Below, one piece after another: positions 5,645 through 47,690 of a stretch of DNA of 64,000 bases. The stretch is from the NCBI GenBank assembly GCA_965645245.1, contig OZ287076.1, forward strand, positions 1,550,001-1,614,000, written 5' to 3'. The first letter of the stretch is position 1; the number at the start of each line of letters is the position of its first letter. Under the pieces are notes generated by a model, which worked only from the letters and a program-made list of their open reading frames with translations, ran no database searches and was not told where the DNA came from. This stretch comes from Massalongia carnosa. Taxonomy: Eukaryota. The position numbers were made by a program, and so were the translations under genes.

Positions 5645-6158
5645 GGGATCGAAGTACCTCTTGTTTCTTAATTTCGGCAACGGGTTTCCCTAGTTAGCGA
5701 TTCATTGTTCGTTTCTAGGTGGTTTTTCTCGGCCTTTTATTCCTGTTTCAGGCTTTGTATACATATAGTAGCATCCCTTTGACGACAGGGGAAAGGGGCT
5801 GCAAAGGGAAGGGAGCTTTCATTCGTGTCTTGGCGAAAGACTTTTAGGGTGACAGACTCGGCCAAATTCGTTAGCGAATGATAGACTACAAGAAATTAAT
5901 GTAGTACGGGCGGTAGCGTTCTTGTATCTATGTCTTGTGCCATGAATCTATGAAATAATCAAAACGTCAAATGAATTAAGCGCTGAAGCGTTAACTTAAG
6001 TAAAGTTATATAATAGGAGTTTGTGCAGCTGACTCAGCTATCCCAAACGGAAGATATTAATACCGACCCATAGGTTTAACAAATGTTTACGAATACACAA
6101 CATCTGCTTCTCTATAATATTTGAACTAACTTGCTGTCTTTTCCTTGTACTTCTTAAC

Positions 6159-7831: not shown

Positions 7832-9024
7832 TGGTTACATAGAGAAGGACTGCCTTGGTTGTTTTCCTGACAGAATCAATCGCTGCATGTCCTCTTCCAC
7901 CAGCCGGAAAGGGTTGCCGTGATTTTGACAACTTCACCAGACCCTTGCGCCAAGTCTTTCTCCTCCAAAGCCTTGAACTAGGTAGGATTATAAAGTTGCC
8001 TGATGATTGACCGATTCTACACGATCAACTACCCCTCAACGATATCGCGCCCTAGAAGTGGTTCGGATTCCGCTACATATGTACTTTTTTTGAAAGACTC
8101 CTTCTTGACGAATAGCCTGCCCTCCCAAAGACTCTTTCTCCTTCTCCTCCTTTTTCTCCTGCTCCTCCTTCTTCTTAGTAACTAGCAACTACAGAGTACT
8201 CATAGAGAAAAAAAAAGCGAAGCACCATTCGTTCGTTCGTTCGCTTGGTTTGCTTGTATCCATCATTATCAATACCATTATCACTACCATTAAATAAGCT
8301 CACCCATCCAAAAAAAAACCACCACCCATCCATCTTCCTCCCTATCTAGTCACCTTGTGCTTTTCCTTTTCTTTGCGCTAAATACATAACTAGCGAAGAC
8401 AAAACCGTCTGCAAACCGACAGAGAATCGAGATCGGGACATTTGCCCGATGTTGTTTTTATATGTTAACTCGTTTTGGAGTACCTAGTTAAGTTAGTTAA
8501 GTTAATGTTGTCTCTCTCTCTCTGTGCGTGTGTGGGTGCTTTTTCATGGGGCGATGCCCTATCGCGAATCCAGTACCTCTGTATACTGAATGGAGTTTTG
8601 TTTATCCTCCTTCCTTCTCCGATATTGTTGGTTGGTTGGTTGGCTTTTGCTTTTGCTTTTGCAAGGAGGAAAAGGGAAAATAGGTAGAGTGGTGATTTAT
8701 GGTTTGGTACGAGATTTTTTTTGGTACCGATTGTGATGATGGCGCAGAAAGGGACGGAGAGAGGGAGGGAAGGGAGGGGGTGAGGGGTGGGGTTTGCTGA
8801 CCGAGGAAGGAGGGAAGGATTGGCGGATAGGTATGTACGGTAGGGTAGGTATGGATCGGTAGGAGATGGAAAGGGTGATTTCAGCGCTTTTTGAGACTTC
8901 CCTTCCCCTATTCGACGCCCTCCGCTTGCTTGGTACTTTTTTGGCTGTAGAATCTATCTATCTAGGTAACACAATATACCTAAAACAAAGCTTGTCGACC
9001 AAGCTAACCAACCCCCCAACCGAA

Positions 9025-10318: not shown

Positions 10319-12853
10319 TTAAGAGTCGTCATCATCAAAGTGCCCTTTTCGCATCTTTGGTTTTCTTCCCTTTTTAGCCTGCTTCTCAAACTTGGGCTTG
10401 GGATCTGACGGCTGCCGTATGTCGTCCTTGCCAGCCTCGAACACACTTTTGCCCCCGGCCTTGGAGTTTTTCGTTCCTATACGCACGTTTCGAGCAGTTC
10501 TTGTCTTTGCACCGAGCGCCCACAAGTCCCCCCATCGCGACTTGCGCGCGTCTCGGTATGCCTGTCTGCTGAAAGACTTCGGTACAACCCATCGCTCTAT
10601 TTGGCCTTGAGGTGTGCAAAGGTCGAGAGTCACATGTCCTCTCCTCTTCAACGGCGGCAGTATAGCGCGCGGAAGACTCAGCGCGCTGAAAGCTGGAGAC
10701 TGTTTGTCGATCGTTCCCGAAGGCTCAGCTGACGAATCAACATCTTCATACTCCTCGGCCTCATACCCTTCGAATGCGGCATCCGCCGCTACTTTCCCCT
10801 GAAGAATCCCTTGGGTTTGACGCTGATCGATGCCTCGCTGCACAGCGATGTAACTAAACTGAAGGTCCTCATGGTTCCGGTCTCTGGCTCCAAGAATTCG
10901 CTGGAGAAAGTGTGGACGAACGAAGCGTTGCGAAAAGTGGCAGTGATCTTTCCTCCCTGAGCTTTTTCCCGAGGTGAGATACATAGGGCATTTGAGATGA
11001 TTTGTACAGGGTGCGATGATCATCCCAACTTCCTTTTCCCTAAAGCGTGTCTGAAACGGTTCTTCCACTCGATTCTCCGCCTTTTCCGAGCCTTGGGATG
11101 CAATATGGTGCTTTAGTAACACCTCACGTGCACCAGCAACGAATTCGAAGCCCCTGGGCACACCTTTCTCAACGATAAGAAGTACGCCGCCTTTCGGGTC
11201 CAGCAAGGACCAGAAGTTCTGCACCTGGCTCTTCCGCATATAATCTTCCTTTAACGACCACAAGGTATGAGGTGCTATGATTATATCGTACTGTTTTCTA
11301 GGAGTTGCAGACTTATTCTCTACAGACGGGTGATCATACTGCGGATTGTAGTCTGGCAAACGAGGTATAAATGTGGTATTACCCAGCACCTGGCTCATGC
11401 GGTTGCGTAGAGCACCTGATCCAACGACTACAATTGATTTCCCGAAAGGGACGGGCTTCTCAGGTGGTACACCATCGGGGTGCAGGAGCTCCCATTCAGT
11501 CCGCAAAAGATTTCGCCATGCAAGCACGCTAGCACCAGCTCCCCCGGCATCAAGAATACGAGGACCACCATCTTTCTTCAGTAGGTCTTTAAGCCATTCC
11601 GATCCGATGCGTTTACGGATTTCAACGAGACAGCTCGTCACTGCTGCATAGATACCAGGTGTGATGGCAGCCAAATACGAATTTGCTTCCATTTCGCTCA
11701 TTCTAAAGTGCGATGCTTCAAGCGCAATTGGCTGCTGTTTTAGATGGCCTTTCGTATTTGGCGTAGCCGTAGAGTTAGGCAGATGGGCCCCACCAAAGCT
11801 TTCTCGAGCTACCTCAGCCAGATGTTTATTAGAGGCTTTGGCTAATAATTCAGTGATTGGATCCACAACCGAATCCTTGTGAATATGAAGAGTAGCAGGG
11901 GAGGTTTTGAATTTGCCAGCAGCGGTGAGAGGATGCGTTCTTACATCATCATTGTCTTCGTGTGCACTCTCAGATTCTTCGCTAAATGAAACATCGTCTT
12001 CGTCTAAATCCTGATCAAGCTCTTCTTGCGCCGTGTCCTCGTACTCTTCCACGACCCCTTCAGCGTTTTCAGTTTCGTCAACTTTATTGGACTCGATCTC
12101 AGCAAGCTCGGCTGCTTGGCGCGCTTTGACCATATCTCTATAAAGCATAATACGGGCGTCAAAGTCATCTGCTACTCCCTTTCCTTGGACCTCCCTCTCC
12201 TCTGTTGGTGCGCCTTCGATGTCTTCTGACTCCTCAAATTCTTCTGCTTTTGATGCTGCTATTTCTTCCTCATTCACGTCAGAAGTCTCATACTCCGCGC
12301 GATATTCTGCTTCTTCCTCTAGAGGTCTTTTTTGATAGTATTCCACCTCCTCTAGATTACTATCCTCATCCTCTTGGAGAAGGGCATCATTTTCATTTTC
12401 TTCCGCTCCATCCTCCTCCACCATTTGTAGCAGCCTCACATCTTCAGGTCTAGTTTCGCTTATCGGTGGGCCATATAGCCTTTCATATATCCCGTATTCT
12501 TCAGTGGAGAGAAAATCTTTGGGAAGGGTTTCCCCAAATGTCTGCCTCGCTTGAAGCGCAACAGCCTCCAAGTCTGCAAGAGACTTTTTCGGACCATGCT
12601 GGTGGCCCTCGGCAGGATCCGAAGAACATCGAAAGGCCCTTCCAGCTGTAAACTGTCGTACCGATGGTCTCCTTTGACTTCTGGCACGGGTTAAAATCTC
12701 ACGACTAAATCTAGAGACATTGGGAGTCGGACAAAATCCATTCTTGAACAAGTACAAAAGCTGCGATGAACAGGTATAACAGATTTTCGTTTGAGTTGTT
12801 CGAGAGGCCTGCATGCTAGATATAACACTGTTGGGAGATAGGTATGGTGGCAT
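10319..12853 (-). CDS. RSM22: Mitochondrial small-subunit protein/assembly factor Rsm22 (METTL17 family)
   Basis: 844-aa ORF with ILDAGGAG, IVEKGVPRGF, IIAPCTNHLKCP, CHFSQRFVRP, KRRGHVTLDLC and YRDARKSRWGDLW. Confidence 0.93.
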   Translation of the reverse strand: MPPYLSPNSVISSMQASRTTQTKICYTCSSQLLYLFKNGFCPTPNVSRFSREILTRARSQRRPSVRQFTAGRAFRCSSDPAEGHQHGPKKSLADLEAVALQARQTFGETLPKDFLSTEEYGIYERLYGPPISETRPEDVRLLQMVEEDGAEENENDALLQEDEDSNLEEVEYYQKRPLEEEAEYRAEYETSDVNEEEIAASKAEEFEESEDIEGAPTEEREVQGKGVADDFDARIMLYRDMVKARQAAELAEIESNKVDETENAEGVVEEYEDTAQEELDQDLDEDDVSFSEESESAHEDNDDVRTHPLTAAGKFKTSPATLHIHKDSVVDPITELLAKASNKHLAEVARESFGGAHLPNSTATPNTKGHLKQQPIALEASHFRMSEMEANSYLAAITPGIYAAVTSCLVEIRKRIGSEWLKDLLKKDGGPRILDAGGAGASVLAWRNLLRTEWELLHPDGVPPEKPVPFGKSIVVVGSGALRNRMSQVLGNTTFIPRLPDYNPQYDHPSVENKSATPRKQYDIIIAPHTLWSLKEDYMRKSQVQNFWSLLDPKGGVLLIVEKGVPRGFEFVAGAREVLLKHHIASQGSEKAENRVEEPFQTRFREKEVGMIIAPCTNHLKCPMYLTSGKSSGRKDHCHFSQRFVRPHFLQRILGARDRNHEDLQFSYIAVQRGIDQRQTQGILQGKVAADAAFEGYEAEEYEDVDSSAEPSGTIDKQSPAFSALSLPRAILPPLKRRGHVTLDLCTPQGQIERWVVPKSFSRQAYRDARKSRWGDLWALGAKTRTARNVRIGTKNSKAGGKSVFEAGKDDIRQPSDPKPKFEKQAKKGRKPKMRKGHFDDDDS

Positions 12854-28965: not shown

Positions 28966-31066
28966 CTAAACTGTCATCGTTTCTGTTCGATTCGCTTCAA
29001 CGCTTGGGTCAGAGGCTTGCGTTGTGGGCCTCCTCTCCGGTATGGAGCTCTTGATACTTTGCTCAATTACATCGGCTGGGTTAACGGTCTGTTCCAGGAT
29101 TCCCCCCGGTGCAGAAAGGCTATACATGGCATCCGGACCAGCAACGATGGATCTGTTGGAAAGCTGTCCATTCCACTCCGGACGATACCAAGGCGGCATT
29201 CTTTCGGCTGTTTTCTTATGAACCACTCTGCCTTTTCATCGATTGCCTTTCCCATTGTCATAACATGATCTTCCATAAGCTCATCATGATAATCTGAGCT
29301 GGCCCAAGATCGTACAATAGATTGCATTTGAGCTTTGGATTTGTATCTCTGAACACGACATCACAGCAGCCATATCCATCCTGGATATCCTGCGATGACA
29401 ACTGAGAAAAAGTATATTCTCTCGTCTCTTGCTTTCTTGAACTTGTCCCGGGATGGCTAGCTCCGCTAGCTTTTGCGCCCGAGGTTAGCGATGTACCAAA
29501 GAAGACATGTGAAGACAAGGAGTACAACCGTTGTGTATAAAAAGACCGAGATTGGCTTTCTGTTGGAGTTAAGCTCCTACCCTACATCAATTATGCTGAG
29601 ACTTCGTAGTTTGATCACATACATACCTGAATGTTCATGCCAAATATTGAACTCGACAGACTTAGGGGGATATATATGAAGGCAATGATAGTTACTGAAG
29701 GGTTAGCAAGGAATATTCAGCTGTTGTAGCTCAGAAAAGGGTGAGACATGTACACACTAAGCTTCACCCGTTTTGATTCGTCAATGGATATGTTCGCTTG
29801 TTCAATGGATCTCTTAGAGTTCTCTATGGACTTCTCTGCCTGCTGGATTCCCTTTCTAGACTCTTCAAGGACCATAAACTGACGAGAAGCTGCATGCTAT
29901 CTCTCATCTGGGACTCGGAGCTTTTTTATTCCTGGAGGATCAGATTTTGAGCTGACAAGGATGCTTCCCACTCTAGGTCAATCTCCATAGCTCTGATTTT
30001 ACAATCAGATCTTGCAGGGTTGGCTTGGTCGCTCGTTGTATTTTTTGCGGTGCTTAGATGAATTTCTAAAATCAACAGCGCCCGAAAGATTGCAAGGCTA
30101 CGAAATGAATTTTCAAGGGCATTGATGTGGATCCGTAGCGTCGTCATGTTCTCATAGATTTGAACGGGAATCATGCCATTTTAAAAGTCTAGAGCTGTAT
30201 CATGCAATCCACTTTTCAGAGTATTGTTCCAATAGGTGTGTCTGTACAGAAGAAAATTAGATATGTAAAGAGAGAACCAATCAAATGTGCAGAATGAGGA
30301 AGCGAAAAATACATCTCTTCAATAACGATTAAAGGATACAAACACAACATAGGGTGCTGAGAGACATTAGAGATTGTCGTCGCTGTGATATGCAAGAATA
30401 TCGAGGCATATTCCTGCACAGTATCCGCCCAGAATCCATCTTCTCTGATGTACTTCATTCTTGAGAATGAAGTACCATCCACTGTCAGTCCTGGGACGTC
30501 TCCTGAAACAAAAGCTATATTTTGATACCAGTCTGAAAGCCAAGGTGGATGGTCCTCCAACAGCGCTTCTAGCGCAACGATAACTGTATAAATAGATTGA
30601 GACTTCGACTTAGAAAAAAAAGTTCACGGCGGATTAATTCATGGGAAGCGAGGGTGTCAGCTTGCCTATTGTAATCTTCCTTCCACCCTCTGGTAATTCT
30701 TTCAGCACCTTGGCATGATGATTGCCAAATCGAAGAAACCTTGGTTTCAATGGCATTGGTGGTAGAGGATACTTGAGTTTCGATCCAGGCAGTCCTCCCA
30801 ATGAGCAAATGCTAGACCAGAAAAAGAGAGGCTCGATGCCAAAATGAAGGCCCAAGACATCAACCAATCCTGGCACATTGTATGGCTGGCTAGCACTAAG
30901 CGAGGCGACCCGAGCGATGTGGGTGGCACGGATAGTCCCTTTGGTAGGAAAAATCGAGAACGACAATCATGCGCTTTCGGCTCGATTGTCAAGAACAGAA
31001 CGTTATCACCATCTCACCCGTGCCATGCAAAACTTAGGTCGCTTTTATGATGGCGCGATCTGTTGA
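28966..31066 (-). pseudogene. CorA-like Mg2+ transporter-domain gene, disrupted
   Basis: Exon ~29627-29695 reads TIIAFIYIPLSLSSSIFGMNIQ (GMN signature), followed by a second TM; N-terminal VDVLGLHFGIEPLFFWS. Several in-frame stops; ends approximate. Confidence 0.75.
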
Positions 31067-31716
31067 ATTGCACTGCCGTCGTTCTGGAAGTTTCTATGCT
31101 TAGTCAGCTGAATGTGTATTAGCCGCTCTTCTCCCTCTATAGAATAATCAACCGTCTCAAGTTTCAACACGATCACCACGAGGAAGTGGCAAAACATTGC
31201 TGGACAGATCATCACGAACGAAATGTACTCTGTACGTGTTGTGGCACAGCCTTCGCCTGCACTAACCTCTTTCGGTTAGCTCGGAGCTAACTTATTTAGC
31301 CTATATGCCTAACCCTTTAAAATTAGACTTTGCTTACTAAGTTCGCTGTGCTTACACGTCTGAGGACAAAACTCAATAATACGGGCAGGTTTGCTTAATA
31401 ATGAAATAATACTTAATTATCGAGCGGCCTTCCCCGATTGAGCGTAAAATATCAACTCAATCATGTTATACCATACCGCCGTTTTTTATATGTGTTATTT
31501 TTATGTTTTGGAACCGCGCGGCCGAATATGTGCACTAAAGAACGACATCAAGGGATGGCGAGCATGCTTTTTAAACTCGATGCAAGCTGGACAAAAAGCT
31601 CGGGTTTCAGTCTACAATGGACATCAATTTGGGTCACGAAAATAGTAAGAGAAAGTCGGTTGCAGCCGGTCATTGATTCATAATTAGCAGTGCATCTCTA
31701 TAGCTAGACTATCCAC

Positions 31717-31743
31717 GGCAAAGCCGCGCTGCGCGGATTTGCC
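31717..31743. repeat. Imperfect palindrome, copy 1 (GGCAAAGCCGCGC-T-GCGCGGATTTGCC)
   Basis: Read directly; 14 nt beyond the stop at 31758. Confidence 0.9.
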
Positions 31744-31757
31744 ACATGACATTTGGT

Positions 31758-32936
31758 CTACCTCTTTCTTCCCTTGGCTGCCTTTTTCGCTGATTTATTG
31801 GCCGCCTCTACCAGTCCAAGGTTGGATTTGGCGCTTTTGATTTTGGCGGCCTTCGGGGTCTTGATGTCCTTGGAGGTTTTTGCAGCTTTGCCGCGTTTGC
31901 TAGAACCTGAAAAATCTGTCGGGTCTTCTGGATCGCCAGCCGGGAGCTGGACCTCGGCTTTGTAGTCTATCTTGAAGCTAAATCCTTCACACTTAAATTC
32001 TTCAAAGGAAGGCCGGATTGTAAAGAGCCCGGCAGCCTGTCCCTCCCTGCCCATGAGGCAATGAATGCCTCTCCACCACATGTAATACCAACCAGTTTCA
32101 CCTTCCTCCACCACGTTCCCATCTACATCGCGAGTGCTAGCGACCACCCAGATTTTAGCAGCGTGGCCCAGAGGCATGCGGGTAGCGCGAGGCATGCCGG
32201 CATGGCTATGGGCCAAAATTTACTGAGCCGCTTTTGAGACATGGATCCCAGAAGCTTGGCAACAAGAAAATCATCAACCCTGACATCTTCGCGAAGAATG
32301 TCATCAAGGTTTTCTAAGGAGGGGTTCATGACGAGAGCGAAGGTATCATAGATACTGTAAGAACCTCTATAGATGGGCGCCTCCGAACCAACGTTATCAA
32401 GGGCAGGATCGTAAACTTTGTAGCGGCTAGTGATAAATTTTTTGATATGGGATCTTGGTTAACGAGCCGGTTTAATGACGCGCGTCTTCTTGATAGATGA
32501 GCTTGAGGTGTTATCATCAGGAATGGGGTCGTCAAGATCGCGCTTGGGAAGACGCTTAACCGCGGTCTTGGTAGCCTCTCCGCTTGTAGTCTTTGTTTCG
32601 CTCTTAGTTCTCTTCTTGCTCAATCTGCTGCTTGACTCTTGTTCCTTCTCCTCGGTGTCTACATCAATTATTTCTCCTGCCTTCTTGGACGCAGGAGTCT
32701 TCTTAGACGTAGGAGTCTTTTTATTCGCAGCCTGAGATGAGGGCAAAGGAACTGTCTCGGAAGGCGGAAGCGCCAAATTGGCTTCGGATGTCTTGGGGCT
32801 ATTCACCACTGAACTAAGGGCTTGTGTCATGTAAAAGTGAGCAGAATTCACCTGAGGTTTAGTAAACATCAACATGATATACCTCTTTCGCAACCAGCCC
32901 TATGCCGACAGCAATATCATCTTGCACTGATTCCAT
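31758..32936 (-). pseudogene. Unknown Lys/Ser-rich protein, one premature stop and one frameshift
   Basis: ORFs 32893-32459 and 32329-32123 share a frame across a TAA, then shift into 32216-31758, which ends in a KAAK-rich tail. Start ATG 32936 needs an unusually short 31-nt intron, so it is uncertain. Confidence 0.55.
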
Positions 32937-33423
32937 CCTGTTTACTAGGAAGGGGTTTCAAAGGTGGATGTAGGTAATATTCGACAGGTTTAGATATCAC
33001 TGCATAAAGATGAGAAAGCGAGACAAGCAATCACGAACGTAATGTTAGTTCAAGAAATGTTTTGCAGATTAGGTTTGTAAAGCTGAAACACTTTTCAGGT
33101 GGGCATTAAATAGGTGACCACGACGGTCATTCTTGGTGCGCGTAGATGAAGTTTCTGGGAGGTATCCTGAAGCGTTGATCTACTAACAAAGCTGATTAGG
33201 GCTAAGCTTGTATAATCGATGCGTGATGTTTGTTGTGTTCTTCATGAGTTGTTTTGTTGGCGTTCTTTCATCTTTATCCTTCTTCAGTTCAAAGTCTTCT
33301 CGTTTCTAATATTCTTCAAGTGTTATCTTCAAGGTCGATCCCTTCACAAAGCTCACTCTGTACTTTCTTGTCATTAATCCTTGTCAACAAGGTCGTTCTA
33401 TCTAGGTCTTCAGCTTAGATAAA

Positions 33424-35659
33424 ATGAATGAAGAACGTACGGTGGCAAAGAGATCCTTTGATGATTTGACGAAAGAGACGAACAGTTTGGCTCTAAGTGA
33501 GATCAAGAGAGTAGTCAAATATGCAACTGAAGGAAACGCCCTCAATGCCCTTGACAACCCCATTATCAAAGATATTCGAAACAGGACCACTACAGCCAGA
33601 AATCGAAAAGCAAAGTCGATCAAGGAGATAAAGGCGGTATGGGGATCCGAAACTGAAGACTGGCACTTTGAGGAGTTTGGTGAGCTCTATCTGAGCAAGG
33701 TGGCAGCGGTTGCCAAAAAGCACTCCTTTGATAAGGCTAGCAGGATGATTTTACAAGTTACCATGGATCGCTTACGAAAAGGTCAGTCTAGTCGTGGCTC
33801 GACTAGAGACATTATAACCAGAGATTGGGGCAATCTAAACGCGATGAACGAAGAAGACGCCAACTCGTTACTGTTGCGGCCCTCTCTTGATGCTGAGGAG
33901 CTAGCTCAATTTGAGATGAATCTGATAAAGCTAAATGTGTCTGGTGAGCGCGGCCGTTCAGAGAAACGACTCACCACCGTCAAAACGACGAAGATTTAAG
34001 TCCAGGGCAGTCCGCCTTCGAGCGCTCACCTCTCTCACTCAAAAGAACATTGAGTCATCACAGGATGATGAAGAGACCGAAGAGAGAGACGAAGAAAGTA
34101 GTGATGAGAGTGAGGTGGAAGAGAAGAAATCAATGATGAAAATTTTCAAGCAAAAGTGTTCATGTGAAAACATTCATCGGGCGATTCTGGAGAGACTAGA
34201 GAGAAAGACTGCCTCAGCGGCAGGAATGAAAGGTGACGCAGAGTGTCTAGGCACTCTTAGAAAAATAATGTCTGCAGTTATCCACGGAGAGGAGTTAACT
34301 CACGTCTGCTATCGTCATCTTCTAGCTATAGGCGGTCATTTCGGTCTTCAAGTCAATAATTTAAATGCAGAAGAGTTAAGGCAGAGGCTCAAGTCTTGTC
34401 ATCATCATCGTTCCAACCTCGATGATCTGAAAACAGGACGGGAGACAAGCTTCTGCTTTTGTTTATGTGCTAGACCGAGGGTTGATGATGATGCTCTTGG
34501 CGTCTATTACAAACGAGCAACGAGATCATCTCTGATAAGAGGGCTCAATGAGGAGCAAGCCAAAATCATAGTCGACGAGATTGGAGGAGAGTTTGCTTGG
34601 GATCTCTGGATGAAAGATGGAAATCGTATGTTTGATTGGTTGTGGAAAGGGATAAAATCCAAAGACGAAGTAGAGACCGGAATCGGAGATCTAATACTCG
34701 AAGAGTTCGACATCTATCAGTGGCATCAGCGGGAGAGGAATGGTCAGTCGAATCGTGGATGGTTACGAACTATGTAATACTCTTTAACCCAACAGTTGAT
34801 CCGTCAAGACATCGAATACTGGGCACTGTACGCGTGCCTCCGTCCCGATCGCAATATTCGATTGGTATCATATCCGTATTACGCGACGTATACACGGGAG
34901 GGAGATCCAACTTTTTTTCGCCATATTGATATGAAGGTACCAAAATATCTGGATAATGGTCATGGGGGCAACATCATTCAAGGTTCGGTGTCGCTTAATG
35001 ATGAGACCGCCGAGGGGTGTACTAAAATAGTCCCTGGTTTTCATCTACACATTGCCCAGTGGTGGAATAACGTGTGCGCTCGTGGAGAGGTCCCGGATGG
35101 ACACGTACATGGCCTTGAAAAAATATGGATCAAAGAAGATGCCGCTCAGTTTGGAGACTTTATTCCTGTTCCCTGCAAAAGAGGAGACGTGAGAGTCACG
35201 AAGCCAGAAATCCTTTATGGTTCGACTCCAAAAAAAGGAAACGGCCCGCGTCGGACGGTTCTGCCTTGGTACGTCGGCGTGCAAGAAGACGGCGAGACGC
35301 AGGACATTGTCGAGTCCGATAAATAGAGTGACCTCGCAAGGGCGCATGCTAGTCAAACAGCACCCAGAGTCACTCCTTCAGGACTCGCGAATCGATTTGG
35401 GCCTATCCATAAGTTTCCACCATTCACTCAGCTCTGGCTTGATTCTCCTATCAGTCACGCGCTCGTCTGTCGGACAAGCTGGGAGGACCCTGTCGTTCAA
35501 GCGCAGGCAAACGTAATACTGGGAGAAGATCGCAAGTTAGCAGGAGGCGATTCAGAACCATAGGTTGAACGCTTGCGCAGTTTCAAGGCCGCGTATGGAA
35601 GAGTGAAAATGGTGGAGAGATTGATGTTTGGAGAGGATAGTTTTTTCGTAAATAATTAA
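33424..35659 (+). pseudogene. PhyH-like 2OG-Fe(II) oxygenase-domain protein with long N-terminal extension, disrupted
   Basis: FFRHIDM (HxD), IIQGSVSL, GCTKIVPGFH, VPCKRGDVRV...ILYGS and RRTVLPWY follow the PhyH pattern. Frameshift near 33940, TAA 34775-34777, TAG 35324-35326. Confidence 0.7.
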
Positions 35660-35736
35660 GCAGTCGATGCCTGCGTCAAGCCTGTTTAATTAGCGTGCCT
35701 GTTTTTGAGCTAGTCTCTTGTGTTAATGGTGAACTT

Positions 35737-35758
35737 AAAGCCGCGCCGCGCGGATTCG
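35737..35758. repeat. Imperfect palindrome, copy 2 (AAAGCCGCGC-C-GCGCGGATTCG)
   Basis: Read directly; 77 nt beyond the stop at 35659. Confidence 0.9.
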
Positions 35759-35877
35759 ACCTAGCGCGGCATAAACTTACATGGCTATACCCTGTACATC
35801 CCGCCCGTGCCCCGCTAGCGGTGTAAACAAAGGAAAGGTCACCTGTCCACAGCGCAAAAAAAAACATTGACTTCATC

Positions 35878-36273
35878 ATGGCCTCAACCGAAGCCAACGC
35901 CTCCTCGCCCACTGACCTGTTGACAAGTCCCTGACCTCGAGAGTTTCAACCCCTTCACTGCCAGAAAGCCAAACTCCTTTAAGGCGCCCTCAATCAACCA
36001 TTGCAACTGGCCTCTAAGTCGCTCGTTGAGGTCAATGGGGATCGATTTTCGATGAATCCGACAGTTAACCTTTATATGGAAGGCCTCGCTCGCCTGGGTG
36101 AGAGCTCGATGAAGTACAATCGACATTACATAAGTGAAACGGTACCCCTTGACGATCATGAAAAGGATGTTGACCTTGGACTCGCGCCTACAAATGAAAC
36201 CAGTGAAGCACCTGAAAGCCCCACCCTTCCAACAAGTACGCTGGAACCCTCAGGCGGTATGTTTGTTGATTAA
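35878..36273 (+). pseudogene. Small unknown ORF with two in-frame stops
   Basis: ATG 35878 is in frame with ORF 36001-36273, interrupted by TGA and TAA that would revert to CGA and CAA. Confidence 0.35.
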
Positions 36274-36301
36274 ACCCGTTCTATTCATCGCTCACCGGAG
36301 G

Positions 36302-36328
36302 AGCAAATCCGCGCCGCGCGGCTTTGCT
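36302..36328. repeat. Imperfect palindrome, copy 3, inverted (AGCAAATCCGCGC-C-GCGCGGCTTTGCT)
   Basis: Read directly; lies between the convergent stops at 36273 and 36337. Confidence 0.9.
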
Positions 36329-36336
36329 GTCCGCCA

Positions 36337-38569
36337 TCACTCATCCAGGTAAGCTGGTCGCCTTCTTTTTCGCCCGGAGCGAGAATCGGGCAGCTCCCTT
36401 GAGGCGATAGACGTTAACTCCGGTGAAGGTCGACGAGGCGTTTGAAGAGGTTTGTCTCTTGAGTTGTTGATGAATGTCTGAGCTCGATGAGCTTTTGGGG
36501 TTGCGTTCAAGCTTGACGCCCTTATTTCACTAAAAGCGTGACGGATAAAAGGTTCAGTCTGATGACCTGATGAAGTAAGGCTTAACCTATTATCTCCATC
36601 TTCTTGCCCTAGATTTTCCTTATCGCTCGTCGTGTCGTTGTCACTTGTCTTTTTCAGCGTTTTCCTTTTGACGTTCATCGCATATCCTCTTTGAATCGCC
36701 CAACTGTTTCTTCGCTCATCAAATTCTGTTTTGGCAGGATTGCTTAATGGCACTAAGATTCGTTTTTTTTTTTTATCATTGTGCCGCTTCCATTCTTCGA
36801 ACATTTCCCCCTCGGCCAGATCTATCGCTTGACCCCGTTTGAGAATATCCAGAATTTCTGCGCTGTGAATTTTCATGTCACTCCAGAAACCATCGATGAA
36901 TCTCGTCATATCCGATTCATCGCTTATAAGATCCGCCCAAGTTGCTAAGGATTTCAACACGTCGTCTGGCAATATCACCGATGGGAAAAATTGTATGTGA
37001 GAATTGGGAAATAGGATTTGTGCCTTGTTTTTTCTCCATTCTTCCAATCGACGAGTGAACCATGGACGCTTGGAAGCATTCCGAGCGTTATCTGTGTTCA
37101 ATATGTCATGAGGAAGTGTCGATGTCTGCGATTCAGGGTTGCAAGTCGAGCAACATGGCAGCGGCTTCTTAACTTCGGACGACGCATATGTATCATCATC
37201 AAAAAACCCCAGCCCGGTTTCTCGAATGCATGCATCTGAAGCGACGTTGATCATTTCATGTAGTCCATGCGGCATGTCGCGCCTCCGATCCGCATCCAAT
37301 TTCTTTGTGCCCTTCTTATCAGCGCCGGAGGCGGCTTGGGTTATCGGCTGACCCAGCGAATCCTGAGTGAATAGGACCTTGCCGCTCTTCGGCCCCACAC
37401 ACCATGGCGGATGCAGAGAGATGAAATGAGCCCGACGTCCACCGCTTCGCATGGCGCGTCCCACACGCTGATAGAATTTCTGCTTTGATGAAGATAAAAG
37501 CCACTGCGCCACTCTTTCAATATCGGGATTGTCAATGCCCAACCCATATGCATCCGTTGCAATCAATATTCGAGGCCATGCACACTCTTCCGAAGATATC
37601 CTGAACTGACGCTGAACCAGCTGCTTATCAAACGAAGCCATATCACCAAAATAAGGACTTATCCAATGATAAGATTCTTTAGGATATCCTAGCTGTCTCA
37701 TCCAATTGCGCATCAACTTACATGCGGTTTTGATGGAATTTATCGTGTCCATGTAAATTATTGTCTTTGGAACATCAAAAGGAGTTTCGGCTCGAATCGG
37801 TAAAGATGTTGAAGGTCAAGCATTCCAGCTTGTGGTTTCAATAAAGAACTGACTTGAATGTAAATGTCTGGTCGATCAAGAGGCGCTTTAATAAGACGAG
37901 TTTCATCATGAAACCCACATTGACTTCTGACGCAGTTCAGGGTTTCTTCATCCAAAGTTGCAGAAACTCCCAAAAAAGGTATTCCATCTGGCAATCGGGT
38001 TCGAAGCACTCCAAGGTTGAAGTATTCCGGTCGGAAATCGCGCCATTCTGATACCAGATGCAGCTCGTCGATGGCCAATAGACAAAGATTTGAGAAATAA
38101 GACGAATGACTGAGAACCATTTCGTTAAATCGCTTCGATGTTGCTATTTCTGGACTTGTGAATACTGTAAGTGTTAGACCGCTGACTTGTACACAACAGG
38201 AATATTCGACTTACCATGAGTGTAACAACTTTGACGAATATCAGTCAAGGTAGATGGATTATTATTATCTCCGTTCAACACTATGGGTCGACAGTTTTCG
38301 ATGAAGGTAAGTTTTTCACATTGCTCCTCTTCCAGTGCAATCAAAGGCATGATTATCAACACTGACTTGCAAGGCGAAAACATCAAAGGAGCAGCTTGAA
38401 ACAGTATGCTCTTTCCGAAACCTGTTTTTGCTATCAAGATCAAATCCATTCTATCACACAACAGATGATGAAGCGCATCCACCTGCTCCCTCTTTGGACG
38501 AAATCCGACATACTGATCAACAACGCTCTCGATCTTCTCACGAGTCAACATCTGTATCGCGTCACTCAT
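36337..38569 (-). pseudogene. RecQ-like superfamily-2 helicase, intron 38165-38214, single frameshift near 37801
   Basis: Motifs AKTGFGKS, PLIALEEEQ, DELH, SAT, ATDAYGLGID and QRVGRAMR, a Zn site C...CCSTC, and an HRDC-like segment LEEWR...ILPDDVL. Restoring one T gives QHLLPIRAETPFDVPKTIIYMD. Confidence 0.88.
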
Positions 38570-39629
38570 ATTGATGTAATATCGCTACAACAAGAAAGCA
38601 CGCTAGCAAGGACGACGACTATATTTTTGAGTTTGAAGTCCTGAAGAACTACGATAACATGATCCGCCAAGGCAATATGATGAATATGAGCGCCGACTAT
38701 TGAATTGAAGAGCAAGACTCAATTCGAAGTTGTTGTGCTGTCGTCGAGATTTGAGAGTCAATTTGAGTCGATATTGCTCGATGATGAAGATAACTGCGCA
38801 ACGCGCGCAGGATGTTTAAATTTTAGATCATTTAATAAAGAATATCTTAAAGTAGCGATGACAATAATGTATTATATTACAACTATCATGCGTTGTCGTT
38901 GATCTTGTCTTAAACGTGAAAAACGATGATTTTAAATCTTAAGCGCGAAACTTACGTGTGTTGTCACCAAAATAACGCGAACCTGACAAAATTACAGAGT
39001 TTTGAACTTTCAGACCTGCCGCCCGAAGCATGCGTAGTAAGCTAAATAGAATCTTATCCTAAAACAGTTAAACATTTAACTAAATTGACTTAGCTTCTGA
39101 CTAATTATATACTAATCCGAAAAGGCTTAGCTGTGGCGAGGGCAAGGCAGGTCTGAGGTACTGAGGCAAGGGTTCGCGGTGGGGCAACGAACGGATGACT
39201 CATCGAGATGGGCGCGCTAGGCTCCCCCGGGACGCGCGGTGAGACTGTCCGATTGTGGGATGGAAGGTTCCATTCTTCTTTCTCAGTCGACATGCCTCGA
39301 GGTCAAACCAGGTCTTCCGCACCACCGTACTGACTGACTGTCTTGGCAAAAGTAGCCTCGGCTGGTTCCACCAGTCACTCGGAAAATTCTAACGCGCTTT
39401 CTGTTTTCTGGCCCCTCTCCTTGCCTTTCACCAACCACCCACATTCGCACAGCCAGTACTTTTACCTTCAAGGCAAACCACCTCTTGGGGTATTGCAAGA
39501 CTGTGCCGTCTATTTTGCGATGAGACCAACACGAATTGAATGAGCCCTCTTCTGGCCAGTTTCTGCTAGAGTCTTGCAGTGAGACAGCAGATTCACGATT
39601 CGACTCGGGCCGGCGCTACCTGTTTCGAG

Positions 39630-47532: not shown

Positions 47533-47690
47533 GTGCGTACAAGCAACACAAGATGCAAGCCCGGTGGCTTTTGTTCTGTTGACGATCCATTCTCTTAAAA
47601 GAACAATTGGTGTGCGTACAAGCAACACAAGATGCAAGCCCGGTGGCTTTTGTTCTGTTGACGATCCATTCTCTTAAAAGAACAATTGGT
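47533..47690. repeat. Perfect 79-bp tandem duplication
   Basis: 47533-47611 is identical to 47612-47690. Confidence 0.95.

Follow-up and report, generated by a model that had tools for sequence, protein, structure and literature searches.

A 27-bp dyad at the gene junctions of an AcademH-like DNA transposon and of a distant related family

Three dyads inside a transposon

A stretch of 64,000 nucleotides from the Massalongia carnosa assembly (GenBank GCA_965645245.1, contig OZ287076.1, positions 1,550,001 to 1,614,000 of the forward strand; the whole stretch is called the window, and its first letter is position 1) contains a DNA transposon of 7.9 kb bounded by imperfect terminal inverted repeats (TIRs). 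An annotation made from the letters of the window (the initial annotation) had noted in it a GC-rich imperfect palindrome, said to mark the 3' end of each of four genes, and this palindrome, a 27-bp dyad about one central base, is the subject of this work. In the following features, family J is a set of distant relatives of the element described further below, and its coordinates are those of a consensus.

31234..39169, no strand: AcademH-like DNA transposon, a dead, internally deleted member of a multicopy family seen in contigs of four sequencing runs; long imperfect TIRs, the right end matching the TIR start of family J
31234..31400, plus strand: left TIR, the outermost ~17 bp missing in the window copy; aligned to the right end with 71% column identity
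31717..31743, no strand: dyad copy 1, 27 bp, past the stop of gene A; J counterpart 10468-10494
31758..32880, minus strand: gene A, a broken passenger gene with a conserved ~170-aa domain; start approximate
33424..35659, plus strand: passenger gene for a ~810-aa 2-oxoglutarate (2OG)-Fe(II) dioxygenase (PhyH/YbiU-like, PF05721), with frameshifts and stops; the profile covers 33508-35656
35734..35760, no strand: dyad copy 2 (core 35737-35756), between the dioxygenase stop and the transposase start; J counterpart 5702-5728
35878..36273, plus strand: DUF6589 transposase remnant, start codon inferred, ~2.4 kb missing within the gene
36302..36328, no strand: dyad copy 3, within the 63 nt that separate the transposase stop from the helicase stop, the two genes being convergent; J counterpart 2827-2853
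36337..38569, minus strand: gene for a superfamily 2 helicase of RecQ type (DEAD and Helicase_C), with an intron at 38166-38215 and a frameshift near 37760-37815
38970..39169, minus strand: right TIR, its tip intact at 39169; joints at 39169/39170 in other samples

A 20-mer core pattern matched the 64-kb window at exactly three sites, 31720-31739 (+), 35737-35756 (+) and 36306-36325 (-), each of them being recovered on both strands; in 100 dinucleotide shuffles it found no match at all (mean 0.00). Allowing up to three mismatches in a looser core pattern returned the same three sites only, and all 3/3 fall inside the transposon, so that the scan bore out the earlier count of three copies with none elsewhere in the window. 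The distances given for the four stops were also correct as measured: 14 nt from copy 1 to the stop of gene A (31758-60), 77 nt from the core of copy 2 to the dioxygenase stop (35657-59), and from copy 3, 28 nt to the stop at 36271-73 and 8 nt to the helicase stop at 36337-39. Of the four genes counted before, the one that ends at 36273 is really the remnant of a transposase gene. Copy 2 also lies shortly upstream of the transposase start and hence is not solely a 3'-end mark.

The stretch 36040-36273 of the remnant aligns with the final 78 codons of the J gene (40% identity, same stop, E 1.6e-14), for which a DUF6589 match was found (E 2e-17), and a contig of run X2 departs from the window sequence at 35998. 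These two observations indicate that the transposase was lost by a deletion within the gene, with both neighboring dyads left in place. Contigs from the four runs contain many copies of the window family together with internal deletion derivatives, and a left TIR-like tip before 31234 is present in run X2 contigs as a loose end, that is, in other copies. The helicase has 28 close relatives at 32-53% identity, its distant matches being named RecQ, and no dyad lies in its intron, which was read from the sequence. Relatives of the helicase were not found in viral contigs.

The element is seemingly nested in another repeat (30900-31230 and 39170-39280), and other samples join 31060 or 31223 to 39170 in a manner resembling an empty site.

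The same dyad in a distant family

A helicase profile search of metagenome contigs gave 78 loci, and loci L014-L077 with the exception of L049 were taken as family J. For the dyad scan, six loci duplicating a site in a second assembly were removed, leaving 57. The J elements are 12.5 kb long and heavily altered by repeat-induced point mutation (RIP); their TIR start resembles the right end of the window element. Their helicase is 26-33% identical per copy to that of the window, or 36% after back-correction. The order of helicase, convergent DUF6589 gene, dioxygenase and gene A is common to both, and J adds a gene E (L030:19400-20860) between the third dyad and the TIR, which is missing from the window element and whose RIP-damaged frames had no Pfam match. 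The DNA of the two can be aligned only at the TIRs, the dyads and some coding stretches; the neighboring non-coding DNA no longer aligns, and copy 2 and its J counterpart have a few flanking bases in common beyond the dyad.

Family J has the dyad at each of the three junctions where the window element has it. In the 57 loci, all 100 dyad matches fell within the 529,537 bases of the elements, and the 491,898 bases of flank had 0. On the strength of the shared junctions in so distant a family and of these counts, the dyad is under selection and, within the scanned DNA, confined to the element; the question of its genome-wide occurrence was covered by the 64-kb window and the 0.49 Mb of J flanks. 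The earlier proposal of an element-specific, selected dyad was thus supported, as homologous elements carry it and their flanks have none. No dyad match was found in viral contigs, and prokaryotic genomes gave two exact matches to a 25-nt pattern, both in ordinary bacterial open reading frames and taken as chance.

The state of RIP and the divergence suggest that the J host is a different fungus from that of the window. CpA is not the only target of RIP in the J host (L014-L077): CpG, CpC and CpT are also mutated at considerable rates. In the four J copies with both ends, the target duplication was 8 bp in three and 9 bp with one G/A difference in the fourth, and the duplicated sequences varied.

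An unrelated dyad in another helicase-DUF6589 lineage

The 27-bp motif was not found in the more distant helicase elements L007, L008/L009, L011 and L012, of which L007, L009 and L012 have a DUF6589 gene. These loci share instead an unrelated dyad of 45 bp with arms of 21-22 bp, located as follows.

L007: 885-935 and 4609-4659
L008: 3210-3259 and 5315-5365
L011: 3478-3528
L012: 5116-5372, 6400-6449, 8002-8052 and 10687-10738, the junction copy being split by an insertion of ~190 bp

The 45-bp dyad stands at the helicase/transposase junction in L008 and L012 and, decayed, in L007; in L012 it is also found upstream of the transposase and beside passenger genes. It lies, moreover, within GT-AG introns of the helicase (L007, L008, L011) and of the transposase (L007, L012), whereas the transposase intron of L008 does not have it, unlike the same intron in L007 and L012. 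A profile of the 45-bp dyad had no match in the other loci or in the window, and its covariation was not above that of shuffles. If the 45-bp dyad is the counterpart of the 27-bp dyad, the general rule for their position would be the non-coding parts of the element and not the 3' ends of genes.

Neither dyad was found in L078, which has a helicase and a DUF6589 gene, or in the short helicase derivatives L001-L004. Three of the latter (L001:~1-2866, L002:997-, L004:1054-3618) are non-autonomous elements with the same TIR start, which keep the helicase and a small convergent frame without the transposase. Past the transposase gene of L008, a 215-bp inverted-repeat unit (8157-8371) is probably a miniature inverted-repeat transposable element (MITE).

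Passenger proteins

The dioxygenase family, of ~810 aa, has a conserved HxD...H triad, in which the window copy has Tyr for the distal His of its relatives. There are 47 relatives, several of them from named ascomycetes (lichen-forming, earth-tongue, Onygenales and Penicillium fungi), and Penicillium nucicola has four near-identical copies on four contigs; none was found in viral contigs or prokaryotic genomes. A structural model (predicted local distance difference test score 85) was closest to YbiU (Z 20.6, root-mean-square deviation 3.4, 280 aligned residues) and GIG2 (Z 19.0), with lower scores for NgTET1 (Z 8.9) and ALKBH3 (Z 8.7). The predicted fold is placed nearest to YbiU/GIG2 (DUF1479) and PhyH, and DNA is a candidate substrate. 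The family also has a helical N-terminal domain with conserved Cys/His residues.

For gene A, 220 relatives were found at E<=0.001, and profile matches were obtained at 32710-32207 and 32204-31857 as well as in family J. No Pfam family was common to its members, and no meaningful PDB sequence match was found. Its product gave a confident AlphaFold model; since a model without a matched fold does not establish a new one, the fold of this protein may still be of a known kind.

Other features of the window

By its proteasome, splicing and FunK1 kinase genes the window is fungal, and beside the element lies an intact 909-aa FunK1-type kinase (PF17667, 39570-42299) with many variant contigs. Inverted repeat arms (3-100 and 2273-2369, 93-95%) flank a DDE_1 frame at 768-1526, which we take to be a pogo/Fot1-like DNA transposon. 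An exact 79-bp tandem duplication at 47533-47690 may be real or an assembly artefact. The window stretch occurs in five sequencing runs, one of them labelled lichen metagenome.

Is the dyad read as DNA or as RNA?

Among the six 27-bp sites (three in the window, three in J), four of the six core pairs are invariant and the other two vary solely in the RIP-damaged third J site. The half-site is roughly RGCRAA-N-CCGCGC about one free central base, and this base indeed varies between the copies, as had been seen before. Position 7/21 is unpaired in five of the six sites and can be G, T, C or A, which would suit a base that is not read. The G opposite A that the initial annotation had regarded as kept in all three copies holds for the window, but in family J the same position is C/A, A/T or T/T; the offset is thus a free base and not a conserved mismatch. 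The covariation of the outer pair, taken as a sign of selected pairing, rests on a single pair, copy 2 having no paired outer arm. The sense strand of copy 2 does not form the hairpin of the other two copies and folds no better than shuffles (z +1.15), and a centre of one base is unable to close an RNA loop. The invariant core, the free position and the failure of copy 2 to fold are better accommodated by a DNA dyad read by a protein than by an RNA stem.

We therefore propose, with moderate confidence, that the dyad is the DNA site of a dimeric protein and that it works as a boundary of transcription units or as an address for anti-silencing; that the dyad is bound, the kind of binder and the effect are inferred here. 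A symmetric protein would occupy the double-stranded dyad, with one dyad for each junction of transcription units, and once bound would stop read-through over gaps of 40-60 nt. Less read-through would mean less double-stranded RNA from the convergent helicase and transposase transcripts, and would keep upstream genes out of the next promoter. The bound protein could also, or instead, hold the chromatin of the element open, like VANC on VANDAL elements. An element-encoded binder, which might be the transposase N-terminus, the gene A product or the N-terminal domain of the dioxygenase, is more likely than a general host factor. A further step, in which an element protein binds the dyad of its lineage and recruits the PhyH/YbiU-type dioxygenase to modify DNA or chromatin, marking gene ends in the manner of base J in Leishmania or undoing methylation while dyad and reader co-evolve, is speculative and we consider it improbable.

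Several observations weigh against a protein-bound boundary. The exact 27-bp dyad is known from two families only, and six sites are a thin sample. Gene E of family J had no dyad at its 3' end in the J scan, and that the 45-bp dyad does the same job as the 27-bp dyad is assumed. No binder was singled out: an Atlas search with the N-terminal half of the dioxygenase gave no usable match and no known DNA-binding fold, and the gene A model had no Foldseek or VIA match, with no DNA-binding fold seen. VANC motifs form dense tandem arrays and the dyads are single. The cores of the dyads were not significantly spared by RIP in comparison with other GC-rich 13-mers (0.07, 0.01 and 0.15 against a median of 0.12), and so offer no indirect hint that they are occupied. 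For covariation, the six sites together scored above 489 of 500 shuffles, the signal stemming from the three outer pairs and being largely due to paired G-to-A/C-to-T changes of the RIP type; the other four measures showed nothing outstanding. Finally, RNA hairpins can form from copies 1 and 3, their energies being about -18 to -20 kcal/mol and their z about -2 (-1.7 for the other strand of copy 3).

Alternative explanations

The last of these points belongs to the chief rival, already raised in the initial annotation, by which an RNA hairpin sets the 3' end or terminates RNA polymerase II (Pol II) arriving from either side, an RNase III-type cut or hairpin-directed polyadenylation being a conceivable route. 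All 6/6 sites lie downstream of a stop, and the dyads take up most of the gaps between convergent stops (27 of 63 nt in the window, 27 of ~41 nt in J, 47 of 64 nt in L008), as would suit a two-way 3'-end signal, although a DNA roadblock would look alike there. The RNA of the 45-bp dyad folds strongly (z -12 and -4.7), and Pac1 of fission yeast terminates Pol II at stem-loops, as described in the excerpt of PMC8421224 available. According to the same excerpt, however, Pac1 requires a stem of at least 20 nt, and the 27-bp dyad, in the hairpins of copies 1 and 3, yields 11 pairs (5+6 about a mismatch). The core is invariant instead of covarying, copy 2 does not fold, the longer 45-bp dyad lies within introns of essential element genes, and no Rfam match was found for the dyad at E<=1. 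The hairpin is weakened as an explanation by these points, and we regard it as rather unlikely.

An internal accessory site for transposition, such as a transposase enhancer or a site where the helicase is loaded or stopped, placed wherever there is non-coding room, would agree with dyads that are symmetric, element-specific and lineage-specific and that stand at the helicase/transposase junction in both lineages. The helicase-bearing derivatives L001-L004, however, have the same type of TIR and stand at different flanks although they lack the dyad, TIR-only joints exist in the window family (31338-39016 and similar), and the dyad is unlike the subterminal TIR repeats. This explanation seems to us a poor one. 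A still weaker case can be made for a tiny mobile palindrome, similar to a repetitive extragenic palindrome or a MITE, that inserts into the element's non-coding DNA without serving it. Such a palindrome could explain why one transposase intron has the 45-bp dyad in L007 and L012 but not in L008, and why the window helicase intron has none; but no copy was found outside elements in ~0.49 Mb of flanks or in the rest of the window, the positions are retained between distant families, and flanking duplications were not seen, making such an origin quite unlikely.

Least probable of all is a recombination site by which passenger genes would be excised, captured or shuffled, which the initial annotation had suggested by analogy with integron attC. 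In integrons, an imperfect palindrome, attC, follows each gene, and in this respect the dyads are similar. Gene content does differ beside a dyad, as J has gene E between site 3 and the TIR; two of the 90 listed J alignment ends fall within 5 nt of site 1 (L042 and L044), and of the 24 listed among 334 loose ends, one, from run X4, falls within copy 1 (31724). The 90 ends were those left after removal of locus edges, termini and an internal tandem repeat, and many of them are two sides of one insertion or recurring breaks. Beyond the ends in L042 and L044, however, the sequence continues as different AT-rich, repeat-like DNA, which suggests nested insertions. Comparison of element copies revealed no deletion or inversion from dyad to dyad in the 57 J loci, and no joint at a dyad among the 15 of 22 window-family joints listed. 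The gene order is identical in the window family and J. The loss of the transposase, for which recombination at the palindromes had been offered as a possible cause, was intragenic, the last 78 codons and both flanking dyads being kept. No recombinase family was found among the Pfam matches of the main frames of the element, and in particular no tyrosine recombinase family, either there or in the scanned J frames, which are RIP-damaged and so less sensitive. In contrast to integrons there is no integrase, no gain, loss or reordering of cassettes at the sites, and the genes stand in both orientations with their own introns. The intragenic loss, the lack of any dyad-to-dyad event and the lack of a recombinase together make an attC-like role highly improbable.

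Two other candidates were rejected. A Helitron 3' hairpin, considered for the CTAG near copies 1 and 2, does not agree with the TIRs, the target duplications and the internal position of the sites. The possibility that copies 1 and 3 delimit a nested element of 4.6 kb was dismissed, as J keeps the same gene order through the sites and no such unit moves.

Comparison with known systems

The target duplication is mostly 8 bp and the link between DUF6589 and the Academ transposase is one that we presume to hold; the element was for these reasons filed as AcademH-like and not as a member. KolobokH elements duplicate a TTAA target, and the J duplications, of 8-9 bp and varied sequence, exclude this assignment; general background on the group is given in PMC9587614. 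The comparisons below with published systems hold for the excerpts of the cited papers that were available. With AcademH, a fungal group with a RecQ helicase (PMC10799480) and a target duplication of 9-10 bp (PMC10045372), the element shares TIRs, a RecQ-type helicase, a convergent DUF6589 gene, a long target duplication and a fungal host, and it differs in the mostly 8-bp duplication of J, in its two or three passenger genes and in the internal dyads. The literature searched gave no account of internal palindromes or of a PhyH-type dioxygenase in Academ elements; the paper defining AcademH (Kojima 2020) and Repbase were outside this search and may hold an earlier description.

In the distribution of the motif, the element resembles VANDAL elements of Arabidopsis, whose VANC protein recognizes motifs particular to a family and located in introns and between genes (PMC5735166, excerpt). 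There, as here, the motifs are specific to the family and limited to non-coding parts of the element, in one of our lineages including introns, and extra genes are carried. The VANC motifs are dense tandem arrays of 9-bp units, whereas the window element has three single dyads and the dyads in general are single units of 27 or 45 bp; no VANC homologue was found. Fungal DNA transposons carrying TET/JBP dioxygenases are known (PMC12730594), and in these likewise a DNA transposon carries a 2OG-Fe(II) dioxygenase, in hosts that subject repeats to methylation and RIP. The enzyme of the present element differs in being nearest to YbiU/GIG2 (DUF1479) and PhyH by the modelled fold, NgTET1 being the more distant match reported above. 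The excerpt of PMC12730594 mentions base J in Leishmania termination, and in it Academ, PhyH and DUF6589 are not mentioned.

DNA-bound proteins such as Reb1, Rap1 and Abf1 act as Pol II roadblocks in yeast (PMC5052057, excerpt), and a protein bound between genes could halt Pol II in a similar manner; the host sites are found genome-wide, whereas the dyad is limited to the element. Pac1/Rnt1 substrates resemble the dyads in being hairpin-capable sequences shortly after gene ends (PMC8421224, excerpt), but in the 27-bp dyad the stem is too short and sequence rather than pairing is kept, while the 45-bp dyad does reach a 20-nt stem.

The dyad is thus a genuine cis site, under selection and specific to the element, in a transposon of a known kind whose passenger genes are uncharacterised. 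RIP, methylation and RNA interference all confront fungal DNA transposons, and the dyad offers a handle on how four or five genes are kept expressed across gaps of 40-60 nt. Being lineage-specific and internal, it is a precise and mutable site, and it points to two uncharacterised passenger proteins. Should the dioxygenase be recruited through the dyad, the system would be a fungal counterpart of VANC with an enzyme of a class that the literature searched does not report from transposons, together with a protein without a matched fold. If an element protein does read the dyad, the pair would serve in fungi as a compact tool for sequence-specific boundaries or anti-silencing.

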